This document shows positions 7,254-63,072 of a DNA stretch of 64,000 nucleotides, piece after piece. The notes beneath the pieces were generated by a model, which saw only the letters and a program-made list of their open reading frames with translations, did no database searches and was not told where the DNA came from. The position numbers were made by a program, and so were the translations under genes. The stretch's first letter is position 1. The number at the start of each line of letters is the position of its first letter. Source of the stretch: a virus (taxonomy: Duplodnaviria > Caudoviricetes); the IMG/VR virus record IMGVR_UViG_2912765049_000001, positions 64,001 through 128,000 of that record; one strand, written 5' to 3'.

Positions 7254-8670
7254 ATGGCGACAGTGACCCGCTCGCGCCGCGCGGCGATCCAGCGGGAGGC
7301 CGTACAGATCCGGATGCGGTGCCAGCGCTCGGGACATTCGACCGAGCGCACCGTGGCGGCGATCCGCGCGAGTCTGCCCGAGGTCTCTGCGCTCGAGGCG
7401 TGGCGGCTGGCGCTGGGCTGGTCACGGGCGGACACCGTCACCCAAGTCGCCGCGCTCTACCGGGCCGACGGGTTACAGCCCCCGGGCCTTTCGGAGTCGA
7501 TGCTGTGCCGCTGGGAACATGATCAGGAACGGCCGGGAGCGGAATACGCCGTGATGCTGTGCCGGGCCTACGGAGCACGGCTCGAACACCTGGGCCTGGG
7601 CCGTTGGGCCGGTGAAGGCGCTGGCCTTCGGTACCGTCTCCCGGAGCCCGTCGCGTGGGTGTCCGGCCCGCGGGAAGAGATGGAGCCGATGACCACTGAC
7701 GCCGGCCTTCCGGCCGTACGAGAATCTCTGCAGCTCGCCCTCCTCGCCGATCCGCAGGGCAGTCCGCTCGCGGCCCACTTGGCGGAGGCCGCTGTCGAGC
7801 ACTACGACCTCAACTACTCCAAGCACCCGCCGCAGACCTTGTTCAAGGAGATCCGCGACACCAGGGCCCTGCTCATGCCCGTGATGCAGGCCGCCGGCAG
7901 CACCCCCCCACACCGTCGAACTGCAGCGGCAGGTGGCCCGGCTGTCCGCACTGCTGGGCAACCTTGCCTTCCACCTCGACGACACGACCGGCGCGCGGAC
8001 CCATCTGGGTACCGCGGCCACCTACAGTGAGCGAGTGGGTGATGCGCGCCTGGTGGCTTGGGCGTGGGGCGCGCTGAGCTTGGTGGCCCGGTCCACCAAG
8101 CGGTACGAGCTGGCCTTGTCCCACGCCCAACGTGGCGCTGCCCAGGCCCCCGCCGGGCTCGTACGCGCGCAACTGCACGCCTGGGCTCTGCTGCCCTCCC
8201 TGGCGGCGCTCGGGCGCGGTCCGGAAGCGGACGCCGCGCTTGCGACCGCCATGCACGAACTGGAGACCGACGGCACCGGATCCGCGCCCGGCCGGTTCGG
8301 CTTTGACGAACCGGAACTTGCGCTGCACCAGGCCGAAGCCCACCTAGCGCTGGGCCGCGCCGAGCAGGCCGCGGCCCGGGCCGAAGCCTCCGCCGGCGGC
8401 TGCATCCTCGCCACGCCTGGCTGGGCAGCCGCCACCTTGGTCCTCGCCCGGGCCGAGGCCGCAGAACGCCCCGAGGATGCGGCCAGCCGCGCCCTGGATG
8501 TCCTCGACCGCGTTCCCCCTGCCCGGCTGCGCTCGACCGCCCGCGCCCGGCTCTCGCGCCTCGACGGCCAGCTGGCGGCGAGGACGGCGGGCCCCGTGGC
8601 CGACCTGCACGAAAGGCTGCAGCTGCTGCCTCCGCCCGTCGACGCCCACGGAGGCTCGGCCACAGCCTGA
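7254..8670 (+). pseudogene. XRE-family HTH regulator with a TPR-like C-terminus, split by a +1 frameshift in a C7 run
   Basis: ORF 7254..8030 (WRLALGWSR...LSESMLCRWEH) and ORF 7933..8670 (TPR-like helices) join if C7 at 7903-7909 becomes C6, giving 471 aa; TTA at 7473-7475. Confidence 0.75.
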
Positions 8671-54025: not shown

Positions 54026-54739
54026 CTACTGCCAGGGGGCGCGTCCCGTGCCGTCCGCCCACTCCAGCAGGGCCTGCGAGCCCATCAGCTTCAGCGGCGC
54101 CTCGAGGTCGTTGTTCCAGTCGAAGGCGCTCGCGGTGAAGCCGCTCGTCGTGACGATCGCGGCCAGGTCGCAGCCGTGGGTGTCCTGGTAGGTGCCGTTC
54201 ACCTGGTACAGCACCTCGGCACTGACCTTCTTGGTCTCGGTGTACCGCTTGCACTGGATCAGCAGCCAGCGTCCGTCGGGGGTGCGGGCCTTCACGTCGC
54301 CCGCCCGGTCGTTGGCACCGCCGAGGACTTCGACCTTGGTGCAGCCGTCGCGCTGGCACAGCCGGGCGACGGCGCGTTCGAAGCCACCGGGTGACAGGGC
54401 CCGGAAGTGGTCGATGTCGGTGGGCAGTTCGCCGTGCCCGTCCAGGCGCCAGCGCCGGTAGCGGCGCCTGCCCCACAGGTAGGCGGTGGTGACGCCGGCC
54501 AGGCCGAGGACGGTCAGCAGCGCGGCGAGTATGCCGGGGTGGCGGCTGAGGTAGTCGCCGATGAACAGCAGCGCCAGGACCACGACGATGATGAGCGCGG
54601 TGCGGTCTCCGGCCGTTAAGTGGCGTCGCCAGCCGCGGCGTACCGCGCCCCGGCGGCGGCCGGCGGGGTGGCGGCGACGGCTGGTGCGGCGCGCGGGACG
54701 GCGGCGCTCGGGGTGCGGGCGGCGGGTGGTGCTGGCCAT
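54026..54739 (-). CDS. Membrane-anchored Mrr-like restriction endonuclease
   Basis: FERAVARL, GGANDRAGDV, IQCKRY, VTTSGFT; two N-terminal TM helices; TTA at 54617-54619. Confidence 0.82.
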   Translation of the reverse strand: MASTTRRPHPERRRPARRTSRRRHPAGRRRGAVRRGWRRHLTAGDRTALIIVVVLALLFIGDYLSRHPGILAALLTVLGLAGVTTAYLWGRRRYRRWRLDGHGELPTDIDHFRALSPGGFERAVARLCQRDGCTKVEVLGGANDRAGDVKARTPDGRWLLIQCKRYTETKKVSAEVLYQVNGTYQDTHGCDLAAIVTTSGFTASAFDWNNDLEAPLKLMGSQALLEWADGTGRAPWQ

Positions 54740-54804: not shown

Positions 54805-55398
54805 TCAGTCCTCCCACCAGGTACCGGAGAAGCCACCGGAGCGCTTGCGGCGGGCGCCGCCGAAGACGATGCGCAGGAACAGGGCGCCGGCGAGGACGAC
54901 GCCGACGACCTTCAGCACGGTGATGGTCGCGCCCCACAGCGTGTGCAGGCCGGAGTCGATCGCGTCGACGATGTCGTTGCCGTACACCGCACCGACGGTG
55001 GTGACCGCGGCAACACCGGCGAGGTAGGTGGCGGCCTTGAGCTTGCGCCGGTTCCAGGTGAGCCACTGGGGCAGGGTGCGCCGCTCGCGCTCCATGAAGG
55101 CGGTGGGCAGCGAGGCCGGGTCGGGCGAGGCCGACATGGCCCGGCGCGGCGCGGCCGGCGGCGGGGTCGGCTGCTCGAGGGGAACGACCTCGCGGACCAT
55201 CTCGGTGGAGCCGTCGGTGTTGGTCTTGTGGGTCTCGCGGACCGTGTAGCCGTCGGGGACGACGAAGGGGGCGATGCCCGGGGCGACGGGGCCGGGCTGT
55301 GGGATGTGCCGGCCGGGGGTGGTGTCGCTGAGGTCGGCGAGGAGAGCCTGCGCCGTGTCGTACTCGGACTTGCTGAGCCGGACGTTGCCGTCGTTCAT
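54805..55398 (-). CDS. Membrane protein of the transfer/spread module
   Basis: Two C-terminal TM helices; in the TraB gene run. Confidence 0.62.
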   Translation of the reverse strand: MNDGNVRLSKSEYDTAQALLADLSDTTPGRHIPQPGPVAPGIAPFVVPDGYTVRETHKTNTDGSTEMVREVVPLEQPTPPPAAPRRAMSASPDPASLPTAFMERERRTLPQWLTWNRRKLKAATYLAGVAAVTTVGAVYGNDIVDAIDSGLHTLWGATITVLKVVGVVLAGALFLRIVFGGARRKRSGGFSGTWWED

Positions 55399-55402
55399 GG
55401 GG

Positions 55403-55573
55403 TCACGCTTCCTTGTCTGAAGTGGTCGGGGGCTGCGGGGCGGTGCGGGGGTGGGCCAGCGCCCGCCGCAGCGGGCTGGTGGTCGCGGTGGAGGTCGGGT
55501 CCAGGACGGCGATCAGGAGGCGTCCGTCCGGGGCGGGGACGATGACCGGCTGGTCGGCGGCGGGCTGCTGCAT
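55403..55573 (-). CDS. Small hypothetical protein
   Basis: MQQPAADQPV...; fills the gap in the operon. Confidence 0.4.
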   Translation of the reverse strand: MQQPAADQPVIVPAPDGRLLIAVLDPTSTATTSPLRRALAHPRTAPQPPTTSDKEA

Positions 55574-55581
55574 CGGGTCGG

Positions 55582-55896
55582 CTACTCGGTGTCGGGGTTG
55601 ACCGGGCGGGCGACGAACGGCAGGCGCTGTGCCCGGCTCACGTCGATCTCGGCGGCCCCGTACAGCGGGTCGGTGGGATCGCGCCAGAGGTTGCCGCCGT
55701 ACGCGGGGTCCCGTTCGCGGAGCTGGTGGACGTACCCCCGGCACAGACGCGTGTCGTGGCCGCGGACCGGCCAGCCGGAGGTGGTCGCGCACCAGGTGCA
55801 CGACGGATCGGGGCGCAGATGCCGGGCGATGACGTGGCCGAGCTGGGTCAGGCCGGCGCCGATGGCGAAGGACAACAGGACGACGAGGACGCCCAT
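55582..55896 (-). CDS. Small membrane-anchored Cys/His protein
   Basis: N-terminal TM, CTWC...H....C; AGGAAAGG RBS. Confidence 0.6.
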   Translation of the reverse strand: MGVLVVLLSFAIGAGLTQLGHVIARHLRPDPSCTWCATTSGWPVRGHDTRLCRGYVHQLRERDPAYGGNLWRDPTDPLYGAAEIDVSRAQRLPFVARPVNPDTE

Positions 55897-55916
55897 GGTC
55901 GAGAACCTTTCCTGGG

Positions 55917-56111
55917 TCAGAAGTTGATGGAGTGCAGCGCGTCGGCCATCGAGCTGAACGCGTTGGTGATGGAGGGGGCGATGCCGGTGGAGGCGAGGAA
56001 GAAGCCGAACAGCGTGGCGGCCAGGGCCGGGAGGGGGCGCAGGGTGCCCCCTCGCAGCATCACGATCACGATGATGAGCAGGAGCAGGACGGCGGAGACG
56101 GAGATGGCCAT
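55917..56111 (-). CDS. Small two-TM protein typical of actinomycete conjugative elements
   Basis: MAISVSAVLLL...FGFFLASTGIAP, directly after traB. Confidence 0.72.
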   Translation of the reverse strand: MAISVSAVLLLLIIVIVMLRGGTLRPLPALAATLFGFFLASTGIAPSITNAFSSMADALHSINF

Positions 56112-56114
56112 CGG

Positions 56115-58646
56115 TCAGTTCTCTTCCTTGATCTGGGCGAGGAGGGCGTTGAGGGCGTCGGGCTTGTGCAGCACGTCGCGGGCCTTGCTGCCGTCGCGCT
56201 CGCCGACGATGTCCCGGGCGGTCATCTGGTCCATGAGCCAGACCGCCTTGGCGAAGCCGACGCGCAGCTTGCGCTGCAGCATCGACGTGGACCCGAACTG
56301 GGTGGAGACGACCAGCTCGACGGCGTGGCAGAACAGGTCCAGGTCGTCGCCGAGCGGCTCGGCTCCGTCTTCGTCCTCGTCGTCGTCCTGCAGTTCGGCC
56401 GGCGCCGGGTGGTCGGGGTCGGCCCACACATACGGTGTCCTGGGTCCGCCGGGCTGCAGGACGCTCTCGTCGTTGGCGAACCACTTCGAGACGGCCTGCC
56501 GGCTGGGCGGCTTCTCCTCCGGGTACTGCTCCTCGAGCCGCTTCAGGCAGGCGTCGATGGTGATGCCGTCGGGCCCGGCGTCGCGGACCATCTCCATCAC
56601 TTCGTCCTTGCGGGGGTGCTCGCGGGATTTGTCCTTCTCGGCCTCCTCCTGCGCCTGCTGGGCGCCGTGCTTCTCGGCGGCCTGCTGGGTGAGCCATTCG
56701 GCCTCGGCGAGTGCCTTGGAGATCGCGGCCTGCACGCTTGCCTCGTCCGGGCCGGGCGTTCCGGCCGGCGGGGTGGGCTGGCCGCCGACCGGCGGCTGCT
56801 GGCCCCCCTGGCCGCCGCCGTACCGCCGGAGGTAGTCCTCGGCGGACCCCAGAGGACCGAGGTCGCTGGGCAGGGTCCCGCGCCCGGTGCTTCCGTTGCC
56901 GGAACCGCCGGTGCCCGCGGGCGGCTGGACGGTCGGCGCGGGCGGCGCCATGGTGCCGGTGCCGCCGCCGTTCATGCTGGCGGAGGTGCCCGTGCTCGCC
57001 GAGCGCGGCGCGTCGATGCCGAAGGCTTCCAGCAGCCAGCCGATGCGCTCGGTGTCGGACCAGCGATCGCCGTAGCCCCATTTGTTGGCGATGGCGACGG
57101 CCTCGTCGTCCAGGTCGGGACGGATGTGGGCGCGGGCGACCGCCATCTCCTCGATGTGCGTGGAGTCCTCGTCGTCGTTGACGTACGCGAAGCGCCCCTT
57201 CTCCGGCGGCTCGGAGGGGTTCATGGCCGACGTCTTGATGTAGCAGGCGCCGTTGCCGGGCAGGGCGGCCAAATTCACCTGGTGGTAGAAGTCCGGGAAG
57301 ACGTACTGGCCCTCGCCCTTCTTCCGGAAGCGCAGGCCGATCGTCGTGTCGTACTGGCTGTCGATTTCGCCGCCGCCCGTGTTGGGGCCGGTACCGCGCT
57401 GCACCACGTCGACGTAGTCGATCGCCGCCTTGCGGCCCTTCTTGATGCCGCGGGTCTTGGGCTTGGCGGCCATCGGCGACCAGGCCATCAGGTCCGAGCC
57501 TTCCTCGGTGATGACGATGATCGCGGGCTTGTCCGGCTTCGGGACGAGCTTGCCGCCCGGGGCGGTCTTCGCCCGCTGGTCCGCGACGTCGTGTGCCGCG
57601 TTGTACAGCCGTACCGCCTCGTCCTCGGTCGTGGCGATCCAGTCGATGAGCGGGCGGTCGATGACGTTGCCGTCCCCGTCCTTCCAGCCCTCCACCCACG
57701 GCCGCACCCACCGCTTGGCCGTGTGGCCGCTGGCCATGTCGATCATCCAGATCACCGCGTCGACGCAGCGCGTGAGGAGGGAGATCAGCACGTGCAGGGT
57801 GACGCTCTTGCCGGAGCCCTTCTGGCCCGCGATGAGCACGCTGTTCTGCCGCATCAGCAGTTCGATGGGCTCGCCCGACTCCAACATCCCGAGCGTGAGG
57901 GGCTCGTTGATGGTGATGGGGTGGTCGCTGGGGTCCAGCTCCACCAGCTCGGCGAGCACGTTGCGCGTGGACACCTGCAGGTACGCCCGGTCGGCCGTCT
58001 CGCCCGGCTTCAGGGTGAGCGCGCCGGCACGGACACCGGCCTTCATCTCCAGGCGCTTGAGCAGCGGCAGCAGGCCGTCGAAGTCGGTCTCGGTGAGCCG
58101 CAGCGTCAGCTGGAAGCCGTAGTTGGCCTTGTCCTTGCCCTCGACGAACACGCCGCGGGCGCCGACCGAGGCGAACATGTCCGCCCAGTCGGTCAGCGGC
58201 TTGGCGAGCGCCGCCTCCTCCTTCGCCCACTGCTCGGCGATCTCGTCGCCGCGCAGGTAGCGGTCGATGCCGTAGAACGGGGAGATCATCACCGTCATGG
58301 CGCCGAGCGCGGCGGCCGAGGCGAGCGTCCACGGGGTGCCGTGGGCGACCCAGTTCAGCCAGCCCGCCGCGGCGCCGGTCCAGATGCCGGAGAACGCGGT
58401 GTGGAACCAGCGGGCGCGCCTGGAGCGGCCCTCGCCGCCGGTGCGGATGAAGCGGGCGGTGGCCACGGCGATGACCCCGCCGACCGAGCCGATGCCGAGC
58501 ATGTCCAGCGGCACGGTGTGGCCCTGGTCCTCGATTACGCCCAGGCCGACGCCATCGAGGTAGATGAACCCCGCGGTGAACAGCGGGGTCGAGACGACCC
58601 CGTGCACCCAGGGGATGACCTCGCGGTCTTCCTTCGAGCGGGCCAT
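56115..58646 (-). CDS. traB: TraB-type FtsK/SpoIIIE conjugative DNA translocase with a C-terminal FtsK gamma domain
   Basis: N-terminal TM helices, Walker [27 protein letters not shown], a wHTH-like segment, then [20 protein letters not shown]...GSKARDVL. Confidence 0.8.
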
Positions 58647-58721: not shown

Positions 58722-61163
58722 TCAGGCGGTGTTGCGGGACTGGTCCCACTTGGCGGCCTGGTAGCTGGGGTTTTCGAGGTTGTGGAGCTGCTCCTGGTGC
58801 AGCAGCCGGTACAGGAAGTGGACGGCGGTGATGGCGCCGCCCAGGTCGCGGAAGCGCTGGCCGGCGTCCCGGTGCATGGCGGTGACGGCCTCGTGGACGC
58901 GGAACTCCGACTCGGTGACGGTGGCGACCGTCTCCATCAGCTCGTAGAGGGCCTCCGCGAGCGGCGCGAGGTGCTCGATGGTCATCTCGTAGCCGAACAT
59001 CGTCCCGGACGGGTGCAGCCGGATGTGGATCCCGGCGTCGCGGATGGCGCCGGAGGCCAGCAGCAACGGCATGACGTGGACGGTCGGGTCGGTCCACGCG
59101 AACTGCGGCATGACGTGCGCCCAGTTCTCGGACAGGTCCCACTTGCGGCCCTGCCAGGTGGGGTTCTCGATGTTGTCGAGCTGCTCGGCGTGGATCTCCC
59201 GGTACACCTTGTGAGCCGAGTCGACGAACGCGCCCAGCGCCAGGAAGTGGATGCCGATCGTGCGGTACTGGTTCGGGATCTCCGGGTTGACCTTGAAGTC
59301 GTCCTCGGTGACCTGCGCGATGTCGTGCATCAGGTGGCACATCGCGAACTCGAGGTGGCCGAGGTTCTCGATGACTGCCTCGTAGCCCTTCATGCTGTCG
59401 GCCGGCGCCGCCGCGAAGGCGGCTGCGGCCATCCGGATCGCGTCCGCCGCGTAGATGAGTGGATAGGCGTGGTGAACCGGGGCGTTGTCCACGGGTGTTC
59501 CTCCTGCGGTTCCTGCTGCGGTGGCCGGCGACGGCACGGGGGCGTGCCCGCCGGAAGTCGGTACGGGAGCGGCGGTGCCGCCTCCTGCGGTCGGGACCGG
59601 TCCGGCCTTCTTCGCGGCGGCCGGCGCAGGCAGCGGGCTGGCGGTGGCGGTCTTGTAGACCCACGCGTTCAGCCACGACCAGGTCCGCGAGACGTTGACG
59701 AGCTTGGCCAGCGGGCTGGTCGCCCAGTACAGGACCCGGGAGAGCGGACGCAGCCAGTTCGGCCCCATGGTCGAGAAACGGACCGTGCCCAAGAACGAGT
59801 TGAGGGAGAGGACCGCCCGGCCGCCCCAGCGCATCGCGTTGGCCAGGAGCTTCCCGCCGTGCCGGCGGGTGCCGCGGAACACCGCGCGGAACGGCGTCGC
59901 CACCTTGTTCATGCGGTGGCGAAACCTCGGGCTGCTGACCTTCCGGTACACCTTCCCGGCGGCGCTCTTGGTCTTCCGGATCGGGTTCCGCTTCCAGGTG
60001 TAGCCCGCGTGCCGAGGCGCCTTCGCCTTACCGACCTTGTGCTTCTTCTTGCCGGAGCCCTTCGGGCCCTTCGCGGCGCCCTTGCCCTTTCCCTTGCCGG
60101 CGGGCGAGACCTTGCCGGGCTTGCCCGGAGCGCCCTTGCCGGGGCCCTTGCCCGGGGCCTTCTTGCCGCCAGCGCCCGTGCCCTTGCCGGTGGGCGCGCC
60201 CTTGCCCGGAGCGCCCTTGCCCGCGCCCGTGGTGCCCTTGGGCGCCTTCTTGCCGCCCAGGTCCTTGATCTTCCCGGCCAGGGCCTTCGCGTCCTTGCCC
60301 AGCGCGCGCGAACCGTCGCTGAGACCCTCGAGCATCCCCTTGCCGCTCTTCCCCGGCACGGCAGAACCCTTGCCGCCTCCGGCGCCCTTGCGGTTCAGGT
60401 TGCCGCTCCCGGGCGTGCCGGGCCCCTTGCCGCCCGGGCCCTTGGAGCCGAGTCCCTTGGAGCCAGGCCCCCCGCCGCCGAACAGGCTGCCCTTCATGGG
60501 CTTCGGACCGGCGGTCGACCGGTTGCCGCCCAGGCCGCCCTTGTTGGAGCGCGGCGAGGTGTTCAGGCCGCCGGAGCGGTTGGAGGACGGGCGGTTCGGT
60601 CCCAGGCCGACAGGCTTGCGGGACGGGCCACCACCGGGGCCGGTCGTGCCCCTGGACCCGGCGCCGGAGCGCCGCGGGCCGCTCCCGCCGGAACGGTTCC
60701 CCGACAGACCGCCACCCGAGCGGCCAGCGCCGGTGCCCGTGCCTCCCCGGCGTCCGGCGCCCGTGCCGCGGCCCGGGCCGCCTCCTCCGGTGCCGTTCCC
60801 GGCCCGGTTGCGGCGGCTGGCGACCTGGGCGGCCCGGCGGCCGGCCCTGATGACCGCAGCCGTGGTCGCGGTGGCCGCGGCGGCCAGGATCGCGAAGATG
60901 ACGATCGGCAGGCCGAAGACGTGGGCCAGCCAGCACACCGAGATCAGTCCGGTGATCACGCCGCCGGGGATCAGGACCCCGGCAAGGCTGCTGTCCTTCT
61001 GTGACGTAGAGCGACGGCGCTGCGTGCGCTGACCGCCCGGGTCCGTGGTCGCTGCCGCGCCCGACGCCTGGGGCGGTACGGCAGCAACAGGCGGCGGCGC
61101 GGTCGCCGTGGCCGCCGGCGGCGCCATGTCGAAGTCGGGGGTGCTCACGGGGTCTTCCTCCAC
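58722..61163 (-). CDS. TraA-like membrane protein with a G/K/P-rich linker and a duplicated C-terminal helical domain
   Basis: Two repeats ending H.EQL.N.ENP....KWD; immediately upstream of traB. Confidence 0.6.
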   Translation of the reverse strand: MEEDPVSTPDFDMAPPAATATAPPPVAAVPPQASGAAATTDPGGQRTQRRRSTSQKDSSLAGVLIPGGVITGLISVCWLAHVFGLPIVIFAILAAAATATTAAVIRAGRRAAQVASRRNRAGNGTGGGGPGRGTGAGRRGGTGTGAGRSGGGLSGNRSGGSGPRRSGAGSRGTTGPGGGPSRKPVGLGPNRPSSNRSGGLNTSPRSNKGGLGGNRSTAGPKPMKGSLFGGGGPGSKGLGSKGPGGKGPGTPGSGNLNRKGAGGGKGSAVPGKSGKGMLEGLSDGSRALGKDAKALAGKIKDLGGKKAPKGTTGAGKGAPGKGAPTGKGTGAGGKKAPGKGPGKGAPGKPGKVSPAGKGKGKGAAKGPKGSGKKKHKVGKAKAPRHAGYTWKRNPIRKTKSAAGKVYRKVSSPRFRHRMNKVATPFRAVFRGTRRHGGKLLANAMRWGGRAVLSLNSFLGTVRFSTMGPNWLRPLSRVLYWATSPLAKLVNVSRTWSWLNAWVYKTATASPLPAPAAAKKAGPVPTAGGGTAAPVPTSGGHAPVPSPATAAGTAGGTPVDNAPVHHAYPLIYAADAIRMAAAAFAAAPADSMKGYEAVIENLGHLEFAMCHLMHDIAQVTEDDFKVNPEIPNQYRTIGIHFLALGAFVDSAHKVYREIHAEQLDNIENPTWQGRKWDLSENWAHVMPQFAWTDPTVHVMPLLLASGAIRDAGIHIRLHPSGTMFGYEMTIEHLAPLAEALYELMETVATVTESEFRVHEAVTAMHRDAGQRFRDLGGAITAVHFLYRLLHQEQLHNLENPSYQAAKWDQSRNTA

Positions 61164-61206: not shown

Positions 61207-61366
61207 CGTCAAGCCGGAGCGTCAACGTCAACGTCAAGGAGCCTCGTCAACGTCAATTCGTGCTGATCAAGGGGCCGTTTCCGGGGCCTGGGGCGGGGTT
61301 TGGAGCCCTCACGTCACGTCCGGGAGATAGACGTTGACGTTGACGCACCCAGCTTCACGTCACGTT
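61207..61366. repeat. Cluster of CGTCAA/ACGTCA hexamers (candidate clt or regulator site)
   Basis: 6 CGTCAA forward, 2 TTGACG and 2 CACGTCACGT in about 160 bp upstream of the traA-like gene. Confidence 0.7.
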
Positions 61367-62434: not shown

Positions 62435-63072
62435 GGTCTCGCGGGGTGGGTCTCGGTGCTGGGGCGGTCTCGGTGTCGGCCCCGGCCGGTGCGGGTCTCG
62501 CAGGGGTGTGTGACCGGGTCTCGCGAGACCCGGTCTCGGGGTCTCAGCCGTCGGTGCCAGTGGCGTCGGTCTCGGTCTCGAGGTCTCGGTAGGTGCGGTG
62601 TCCGGCCTCGTACAGGGCCCGGGCGTCGGCAAGCCGCTTAGCTGCGGTGGAGCGGGGGCAGCCGGTGATCTCCTCGGCCTCCCCCTTGGCGTTCTTCGGG
62701 CCGAGCTGCACCGTGTTCGCGCCGCCGCGCTCCCACATGACGTCCAGCAGGGCCTGGACTTCGGCGGCCTTGTCCCGCAGCCGCGAGACCTTCGCGGTAC
62801 CGGTCTCGCGGGGGCGAGACCTGGGGGCCGTGGTCTCGCGAGACCGGGCCTGGGTGGTCTCACGAGACCTGCGAGACCCGCCCTGGCCGGTCTCGCGAGA
62901 CCCGGTCTCGCGGGTCTCAGCGGTCTCGGTCTCGGTGTCCGTGCGGGTGTGAGACCCGGTCTCGGTGGTCTCGTGAGACCCGTTCGAGACCCCGGTCTCA
63001 CCGGGGGGCAGCGCACGGCGGGTCTCGGTCTCGATCGCCTCGGTGTCCGAGACCGAGGTCTCGGGCGAGACC
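62435..63072. repeat. Dense GGTCTC/GAGACC array including GGTCTCGCGAGACC palindromes
   Basis: About 36 hexamers by manual count in about 640 bp, in both orientations, inside and downstream of the gene. Confidence 0.9.

Follow-up and report, generated by a model that had tools for sequence, protein, structure and literature searches.

Background

Conjugation in Streptomyces relies on a single FtsK-like motor that transfers double-stranded DNA, and how this motor chooses its DNA, loads onto it, orients itself along it and mobilizes the chromosome on a large scale is only partly understood. This work will focus on one such motor, the product of a traB-like gene in a window of 64,000 nucleotides (positions 64,001 to 128,000 of the IMG/VR virus record IMGVR_UViG_2912765049_000001). 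The window is part of a Streptomyces phage-plasmid of about 152 kb. Coordinates are positions in this window unless they are marked C1 (the chromosome) or C2 (the second contig of the genome, which contains the window), and residues follow the numbering of the traB product.

The closest described system is TraB itself (TraB of pSVH1, Tra of pIJ101; NCBIfam NF041214). In the pSVH1 protein the domain that recognizes clt, the transfer locus that acts in cis, occupies residues 717-772 of 772 (PMC4447253). A single winged helix-turn-helix (wHTH) at the C-terminus of TraB reads 8-bp repeats by way of its helix alpha-3 (PMC3583192, PMC10191066, PMC12857230). The protein studied here is like TraB in being plasmid-borne, in its N-terminal anchor, its FtsK-like motor of the hexameric type and its flexible linker. 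It has a predicted C-terminal winged helix where TraB reads the 8-bp clt repeats, and small spd-like membrane-protein genes follow it. It differs from TraB in having an extra FtsK gamma domain, in a Walker B motif with EE, and in its location on a phage-plasmid.

Chromosomal FtsK is the second system that has to be considered. The residues of the E. coli recognition helix that read KOPS, the FtsK-orienting polar sequences, are N1296, R1300, E1303 and E1306 (PMC2533119, PMC2680272). The traB product shares the motor fold of FtsK (2ius, 6t8g) and the gamma fold of 2ve8 and 2j5p, and its gamma is 71% identical to that of the host. It differs in being encoded on C2, in carrying an additional wHTH before the gamma, and in having an altered recognition helix and wing. 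TcpA of the Clostridium plasmid pCW3 is also an FtsK-like conjugation motor and its structure, 6o1w, is among the top structural matches, but TcpA acts with the multi-protein Tcp apparatus. To our knowledge it has neither a gamma nor a tandem winged-helix tail. Gamma-containing proteins labeled FtsK-like in Mycobacterium and Gordonia phages are another case of a gamma recruited by an actinobacterial mobile element. They match at 50-60% identity in the gamma region only, just 8-11% of the query. Deposited phages contain no full-length relative with both modules, and our literature search found no paper describing the dual layout of wHTH and gamma.

We believe, at somewhat better than even confidence, that the protein is the motor of its phage-plasmid, that the first winged helix reads the DNA of the element, and that the altered gamma acts as a second, re-aimed reader which would aid loading or orientation. 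The argument is made from sequence and predicted structure, and it begins with the C-terminus.

Two winged-helix domains at the C-terminus

The initial annotation had assigned two DNA-recognition modules, a TraB-like wHTH and an FtsK gamma, to 56115-56640, which runs from about residue 670 to the stop (the last 175 codons). All the sequence strings it quoted are found in the 843-aa product, the wHTH string at residues 679-723 and the gamma string ending in GSKARDVL at 785-826; the acidic linker it mentioned contains DDDEDEDG at 754-761. Structure prediction agrees about the number of modules. An AlphaFold2 model of residues 650-843, made from a 55-sequence alignment with a mean predicted local distance difference test (pLDDT) score of 89, has two independently folded helix-helix-helix-wing domains rather than one, at about 680-741 (pLDDT 91-97) and about 766-842 (pLDDT 93-98). 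A disordered acidic linker (pLDDT 47) parts them.

The identity of the second domain is confirmed by the profile search that had been proposed for it. Residues 770-827 match Pfam FtsK_gamma (PF09397) at 71.8 bits, well over the gathering cut-off of 30.6 (E 3.7e-20). The modeled gamma superposes on 2ve8_A, the gamma of Pseudomonas aeruginosa FtsK, with Z 10.9 and a root-mean-square deviation of 2.0 Å over 66 residues. It also matches the E. coli gamma, 2j5p, by Foldseek (E 7.8e-4, template modeling (TM) score 0.79 normalized to the target) and by phmmer.

The first domain, which we call wHTH1 (HPRKDEV...YVW, residues 677-741), is predicted to have the fold of a generic winged helix and belongs to no specific family. 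Its VIA matches are 5cd8 (Z 7.7), 6ndl (Z 7.4), 7vwv (Z 7.4) and 7tdw (Z 7.1), over model residues 24-96. The idea that wHTH1 is a diverged copy of the gamma was ruled out. Profile-profile comparison with hhalign finds no similarity between them (probability 0.1%), and on this basis the pair is not a tandem duplication.

The relatives tell which of the two domains belongs to the family. A homolog search returned 69 full-length strong homologs, every one from Streptomyces. About 29 of them, with lengths of 794-917 aa, carry PF09397. Some 40 others are shorter (706-754 aa), have no PF09397 and align over 88% of the query. In the alignment the short homologs stop directly after wHTH1, while the long ones append an acidic linker and a gamma, and Pfam confirms the absence of the gamma in two of the short proteins. 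Because the gamma-less relatives end right after wHTH1, we take wHTH1 to be the original C-terminal domain of the family. The gamma is an accessory of the family rather than something unique to this gene, since dual domains recur in several lineages and gamma-less sister groups exist. The predicted third helix of wHTH1 comes in subfamily-specific versions (PSRQxxxxWF, PSDTAxQNWF and RDRKTVRxALK), which is the pattern expected from a specificity-determining helix.

One homolog goes further in the number of its domains: P0021 from Streptomyces xiamenensis (917 aa) has two PF09397 stretches, and so two gamma-like domains in addition to wHTH1.

The origin of the gamma domain

The genome has only two gamma domains, the copy in the TraB-like protein on C2 and the one in chromosomal FtsK (C1:2.64 Mb). 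Over 78 residues the two share 71% identity (E 9e-38), and 24 consecutive residues are the same in both. We built a tree of 63 gamma domains from 70 columns, in which the finer branching is not resolved. The query falls in a clade of 21 members (support 100/99) whose stem is long, at 0.27, and this clade joins the chromosomal FtsK gammas of Actinobacteria to the exclusion of other plasmid gammas (92/91). The chromosomal actinobacterial gammas are nearly identical to one another in the tree. The 71% identity to the host gamma and the grouping with chromosomal gammas make a Streptomyces chromosomal ftsK the probable source of this gamma. Among more distant members of the family the gammas are spread over the tree, and despite this scatter the gammas of the family may have a single origin.

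An altered DNA-reading surface

The initial annotation called the gamma canonical, and on this point we disagree. Aligned on 2j5p, the four KOPS-reading positions are A/R/D/E in the host FtsK and A/W/D/T in the TraB gamma. The chromosomal state hardly varies. Thirty-nine chromosomal Streptomyces FtsKs show no variation in helix 3 or the wing (AKAGRLMDLMESR...GPSEGSKARDV), with the recognition helix AKAGRLMDLMES in the host and 38 other chromosomal copies, and the query differs from it. Eight metagenomic actinobacterial FtsKs are near-identical in helix 3 and the wing, with a choice of M or L at one helix position only.

The residues of the clade that are seen in no chromosomal copy cluster in helix 3 (802, 803, 807, 809, 810 and 812) and at the wing tip (816-818). 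Residue 803 is the equivalent of R1300, changed from R to W, and residue 809 is the equivalent of E1306, changed from E to T. Inside the clade, position 802 is V, L, T, Q or M, position 803 is W, E or L, and position 809 is T, S or A. Several of the altered positions are also the most variable ones in the clade; helices 1 and 2 are conserved, and in its scaffold and in the first half of its recognition helix the domain does not differ from the gamma of host FtsK. Such a distribution of changes fits a DNA reader with shifted specificity; it fits neither a reader of the host word nor neutral decay. A retargeted gamma looks likelier than a host-word reader because the reading positions are invariant in the 39 chromosomal FtsKs and changed in the clade, and the gamma probably reads a sequence other than the one read by the host FtsK. 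The initial annotation had proposed that the gamma lets the element load onto or orient on the host chromosome. What survives of its interpretation is the presence of two separate winged-helix modules, the second of them a true FtsK gamma of chromosomal origin; with its reading surface altered, loading at the host word becomes less likely.

How common the dual layout is

We surveyed the genomes of 200 other Streptomyces species, including the unpublished G125, whose sole contribution is one chromosomal match. A chromosomal gamma is present once in each of the 200 genomes and a second gamma in 11. Two of these second gammas are in full FtsK paralogs on secondary replicons and one is in a member of the query's own lineage. 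A distant plasmid lineage (28% identical) accounts for two and a third lineage for one, and in both a wHTH-like segment is followed by the gamma. Two more are in translocases with an N-terminal gamma, one is a small gamma open reading frame (ORF) with a near-canonical TraB some 2.5 kb downstream of it, and the last two are fragments or weak matches. A translocase with a gamma in cis is found in 6 of the 200 genomes. TraBs of the NF041214 type occur in 33 of 201 genomes and none of them has a gamma in cis. By this count the dual layout is recurrent but rare, with at least three plasmid translocase lineages that have it and a fourth with an N-terminal gamma.

Some of these loci deserve a description of their own. 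L061 (G029:C435) and L105 (G184:C12) encode P-loop translocases in which an N-terminal gamma (MTEID...) stands ahead of the membrane segments, and judging from this order they represent a different way of joining a gamma to a plasmid motor. At L062 a 195-aa gamma-containing frame (G076:C40:85192-85365) lies about 2.5 kb upstream of the near-canonical TraB at G076:C40:87877-89790 (732 bits to NF041214), and here the gamma may be supplied as a separate protein. The complete second FtsK genes on secondary replicons are L058 (G084:C2) and L059 (G105:C27); the gamma helix of the former is identical to the host type and that of the latter has one M-to-L change.

Candidate DNA sites and polar words

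A search for clt found no repeat array at the 3' end of traB. In the gap upstream of the neighboring 813-aa gene there is instead an array of tandem TTGACG units, inverted CGTCAA copies and boxes of CGTGACG. It is present at all eight close-clade loci and at none of the other lineages compared, and in six elements its blocks are near-invariant between diverged spacers. The array is unique on C2, and on the 9.6-Mb chromosome nothing more than six tandem dimers occurs, each isolated. From its sequence and placement it may be the promoter and operator of the operon, clt, or the target of the gamma.

Other arrays were considered as well. Seven loci had hinted that upstream arrays track the presence of the gamma. 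This was rejected on an enlarged set, in which arrays occupy that zone at loci without a gamma too. A second array in the window (62435-63072) has about 30 copies of CGAGACC/GGTCTCG, partly in a coding region rich in E, T, S and R and partly in the 130-bp gap that follows. The syntenic arrays of relatives use other words (CGAACCG, CGGACCG, CGTCACG). The GAGACC array was rejected as the site of wHTH1 because the word differs among elements whose wHTH1 helix is unchanged. In eight gamma-less loci with the RDRKTVR-type helix (L010, L011 and L014-L019), CCCACTA is repeated 6-7 times over some 120 bp immediately after the traB stop (locus positions about 8204-8339), in the classical position of clt.

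An unbiased scan of the chromosome finds that the most polarized word family has a GGGGGAG core. Of the 1333 copies of its member CGGGGGAG, 84% are directed away from a switch near 4.7 Mb, while the E. coli KOPS consensus GGGNAGGG is not polarized on C1 (53.5%). This skew makes the GGGGGAG-core word a candidate for the word that orients FtsK in Streptomyces. The core occurs on C2 at chromosomal density, divided 29:9 by strand, and it reverses its orientation first at about 28.4 kb and a second time between 36.9 and 51.7 kb. The polarity could come from the action of host FtsK on the plasmid as well as from TraB.

The word GCAATCAC is enriched on C2 and was tried as a gamma target. It was rejected, being half of a 19-bp palindrome, GTGATTGC-NNN-GCAATCAC, that is clustered at C2 27.8-33.6 kb. 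The palindrome has 13 full copies on C2, and its half-site is about 32-fold above chromosomal density. Apart from copies at C2 40,039 and 149,213 the palindromes form one cluster (C2 27,792-33,648), and because these eleven copies lie where the polarity of GGGGGAG flips, the palindrome is likely an origin, partition or regulator site.

Weighing the readings

Our reading of the protein can be put as a series of steps. The membrane-anchored motor would pump double-stranded DNA during transfer, and wHTH1 would select the DNA of the element in the way that TraB uses its 8-bp repeats. A second sequence-specific contact would come from the modified gamma, and by analogy with FtsK this contact would nucleate loading of the hexamer in a set orientation. 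The target of the gamma would be a clade-specific word rather than the polar word of the host FtsK, and the conserved TTGACG/CGTCAA array upstream of the operon is one candidate target for either domain. It is tempting to go a step further. A gamma re-aimed to a clade-specific polar or loading word would give the element its own orientation system in the style of FtsK and KOPS, apart from the recognition of clt by wHTH1, and repeated capture of gammas by unrelated Streptomyces plasmid translocases would be a general route to directionality or chromosome mobilization. We count the capture by at least four plasmid translocase lineages in favor of a selective value of the gamma, but the extended proposal is tentative and we would sooner doubt it than defend it.

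Several observations weigh against the idea of two DNA readers. The initial annotation described wHTH1 as TraB-like, and that description holds for a winged helix at the position where TraB reads clt; it does not extend to homology, since hhalign finds the same helix order in the C-termini of canonical NF041214-type TraBs at a probability of only 2%, which is not significant. We therefore claim the equivalence of wHTH1 to the clt-reading domain for position and predicted structure only. With middling fold matches (Z about 7.5) and no significant homology, wHTH1 could instead be a winged helix that binds protein. The mapping of the KOPS-reading residues from E. coli to Streptomyces is by alignment alone. 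A search of C2 for a plasmid-specific 7- or 8-mer that is polarized or enriched, as a gamma target might be, found none. The TTGACG array may be a plain promoter and operator, its last unit being placed like a -35 box. Sequence comparison does not assign this array to either domain, because the SRQ-type helix of wHTH1 and the altered gamma helix are both specific to the same clade. Finally, L005 has E instead of W at the position equivalent to R1300 and keeps the same array.

The rival nearest to our reading is that the gamma still reads the polar word that orients the host FtsK. The motor would then load or orient on the host chromosome, or on the copies of that word which the plasmid itself carries, and this would improve chromosome mobilization or put the protein in competition with host FtsK. 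In its favor are the scaffold and first half of the recognition helix shared with the host gamma, and a strongly polarized word is available in the 1333 copies of CGGGGGAG, 84% of them directed away from mid-chromosome. On the plasmid the GGGGGAG core is as dense as on the chromosome, and 29 of its 38 copies share a strand. Chromosome transfer by other TraBs through clt-like sequences is established (PMC12857230), and in the gamma-bearing plasmid lineages L060 and L062 the reading positions still carry R and E, as they do in the host. Against this, the equivalents of R1300 and E1306, four neighboring helix residues and the wing tip all depart from a consensus that is invariant in 39 species, and the variation between W, L and E inside the clade is not expected of a protein that reads one fixed host word. 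That CGGGGGAG is the target of FtsK is suggested by its skew only, and host FtsK or the direction of replication could explain the polarity on the plasmid equally well. We consider this rival unlikely. The proposal that the gamma is kept for contacts with proteins seems to us more unlikely still. It would activate a Xer-type recombinase, or dock Spd or another partner, and the helix changes would have abolished KOPS-type reading. The E. coli gamma does activate XerD, the surfaces that bind XerD and KOPS overlap, and R1289 is critical (PMC5052618); the C-terminal domain of pSVH1 TraB contacts Spd198 and SpdB2 (PMC4447253). The equivalent of R1289, the R of MLQRKLR, is conserved in all gamma copies compared, a residue which does not discriminate between the readings. 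The genome, however, has no XerD ortholog above the family cut-off (best 79.9 bits against 329.6), and none of the 21 weak tyrosine-recombinase matches is located on C2. The host chromosome is linear, so dimer resolution is an unlikely reason for the conservation of the chromosomal gamma, and changes that concentrate in helix 3 and the wing and vary within the clade resemble a change in DNA specificity.

The gamma could also be a functionless remnant of recombination between traB and ftsK that is drifting neutrally. Sister groups do without a gamma and presumably function, and the TraB gamma evolves faster than the chromosomal copy (stem 0.27 against about 0.02). The domain is nevertheless intact in 21 diverged members of the clade, which are 65-90% identical overall; its hydrophobic scaffold is conserved, and its fold is predicted with high confidence. 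At least four translocase lineages have acquired a gamma, and the substitutions in the TraB gamma cluster on the DNA-facing elements instead of being spread evenly. A remnant of this kind is very improbable. We return to the re-aimed second reader as the account that we would put forward, at the modest confidence given above.

The gene, its motor and its replicon

The features of the locus are collected in Table 1.

Table 1. Features of the traB-like gene and its neighbors (positions in the 64,000-nucleotide window)
Feature	Position	Strand	Residues	Basis
traB-like gene, membrane-anchored FtsK/TraB-type double-stranded DNA translocase	56115..58646	-	843 aa + stop	ORF list + translation
N-terminal hydrophobic segments, likely membrane anchor	58266..58619	-	~10-127	Kyte-Doolittle
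FtsK-like motor domain (predicted)	56967..58034	-	~205-560	AlphaFold2 model + Foldseek + motifs
Walker A (GSGKS = 277-281)	57804-57830	-	273-281	motif position
Walker B, reads ITEE instead of the usual DE	57492-57524	-	375-385	motif position
Flexible Gly/Ala/Pro/Gln-rich linker, helical acidic stretch at its end	56619..56966	-	561-676	composition
wHTH1, the family's own winged helix (predicted)	56412..56618	-	677-745	model + family alignment
wHTH1, predicted recognition helix	56478-56507	-		helix-helix-helix-wing topology of model
Acidic disordered linker (DDDEDEDG at 754-761)	56352..56411	-	746-765	pLDDT 47 + sequence
FtsK gamma domain	56118..56351	-	766-843	PF09397 + fold match
Gamma recognition helix	56211-56255	-	798-812	sequence
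813-aa gene next upstream, same operon, membrane segment + Gly/Lys-rich low-complexity region	58722..61163	-	813 aa	ORF list
Four tightly packed small ORFs after traB (56111-55917, 55896-55582, 55573-55403, 55398-54805)	54805..56111	-		ORF list
Candidate cis-site, tandem TTGACG, CGTGACG boxes and inverted CGTCAA; gap upstream of 813-aa gene, 2.6 kb upstream of traB	61207..61366	.		sequence

The rest of the protein is that of a membrane-bound translocase. Kyte-Doolittle peaks fall at residues 10-38, 44-67 and 109-127, and the Pro and Trp residues of this hydrophobic region are invariant across the family alignment. An AlphaFold2 model of residues 140-560 (66-sequence alignment, pLDDT 76) matches the E. 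coli FtsK motor 2ius (Foldseek E 8.4e-13), the FtsK bound to DNA in 6t8g (TM 0.53-0.55) and TcpA, the FtsK-like conjugation protein in 6o1w (Foldseek E 3.6e-12). The ITEE reading of Walker B, already noticed in the initial annotation, is real and specific to the clade. ITEEG, with Glu for the Walker B Asp, is found in exactly the 20 close-clade members and the other 46 aligned relatives keep DE, so by this alignment the Glu is a conserved trait of the clade, neither an error nor a sign of decay. The Gly/Ala/Pro-rich linker (23 G, 16 A and 15 P among the 121 residues of 560-680) is weakly conserved and varies in length.

The question of what to call the protein is not trivial. Pfam FtsK_SpoIIIE (PF01580) scores 21.2 bits on it, below the 24-bit cut-off, and FtsK_alpha (PF17854) has no Pfam match; the chromosomal FtsK of the host scores 214.2 and 96.1 bits, respectively. 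PHROG family phrog_31069 (FtsK/SpoIIIE-like) is matched with E 5.7e-29. The plasmid_TraB equivalog NF041214 gives 35.9 bits against a cut-off of 800, over profile positions 53-289 only. Because of this low score we regard the protein, on profile evidence, as TraB-like in build and context and yet as a separate family from the equivalog. Database records name these proteins "DNA translocase FtsK", and this NCBI name is misleading for plasmid transfer proteins. An identical gene is present on a contig of Streptomyces muensis.

The genome consists of a linear chromosome, C1, of 9.62 Mb with terminal inverted repeats identical for at least 3 kb, and of C2, 151,949 bp without such terminal repeats, which contains the window and traB. 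The window encodes a homolog of portal proteins (phrog_64, E 1.5e-10) as well as a fusion of ParB with a methyltransferase. In two related circular plasmids traB has a terminase gene a few kb away, and four relatives are on contigs classed as viral in IMG/VR. We take C2 to be a phage-plasmid. It carries the palindromes CTGCAG and CTCGAG at 4-8 times their chromosomal density, perhaps because the chromosome avoids such sites or because the plasmid is a recent arrival.

The layout of the genes is that of a Streptomyces tra/spd operon. A gene for a DUF2637-type membrane protein lies upstream of traB, as it does in the relatives. The product of the 813-aa gene has no match in Pfam, NCBIfam or PHROG, and related plasmids have a large ORF at the corresponding position. 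Within this gene 60048-60426 holds nine copies of CCCTTGCC, which are Gly-Lys-Gly codon repeats. Downstream, a small ORF begins within 4 nt of the traB stop codon. At least three of the four small ORFs carry hydrophobic segments, which is why we list them as spd-like candidates; the 197-aa one has no family match. At the end of the transfer operon (54026-54739, minus strand) is a gene for a 237-aa protein that has a membrane segment at its N-terminus and also contains an Mrr_cat restriction-endonuclease domain (E 1.7e-17).

Conclusions

The entries of this family that are now labeled "DNA translocase FtsK" are plasmid transfer proteins, and the label should be corrected. The capture of a gamma has occurred several times on Streptomyces plasmids. 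A motor that joins the usual target-recognition domain to a recently borrowed and altered FtsK orientation domain is a natural experiment with separable readers, and it bears on how such motors choose, load onto and orient along their DNA.

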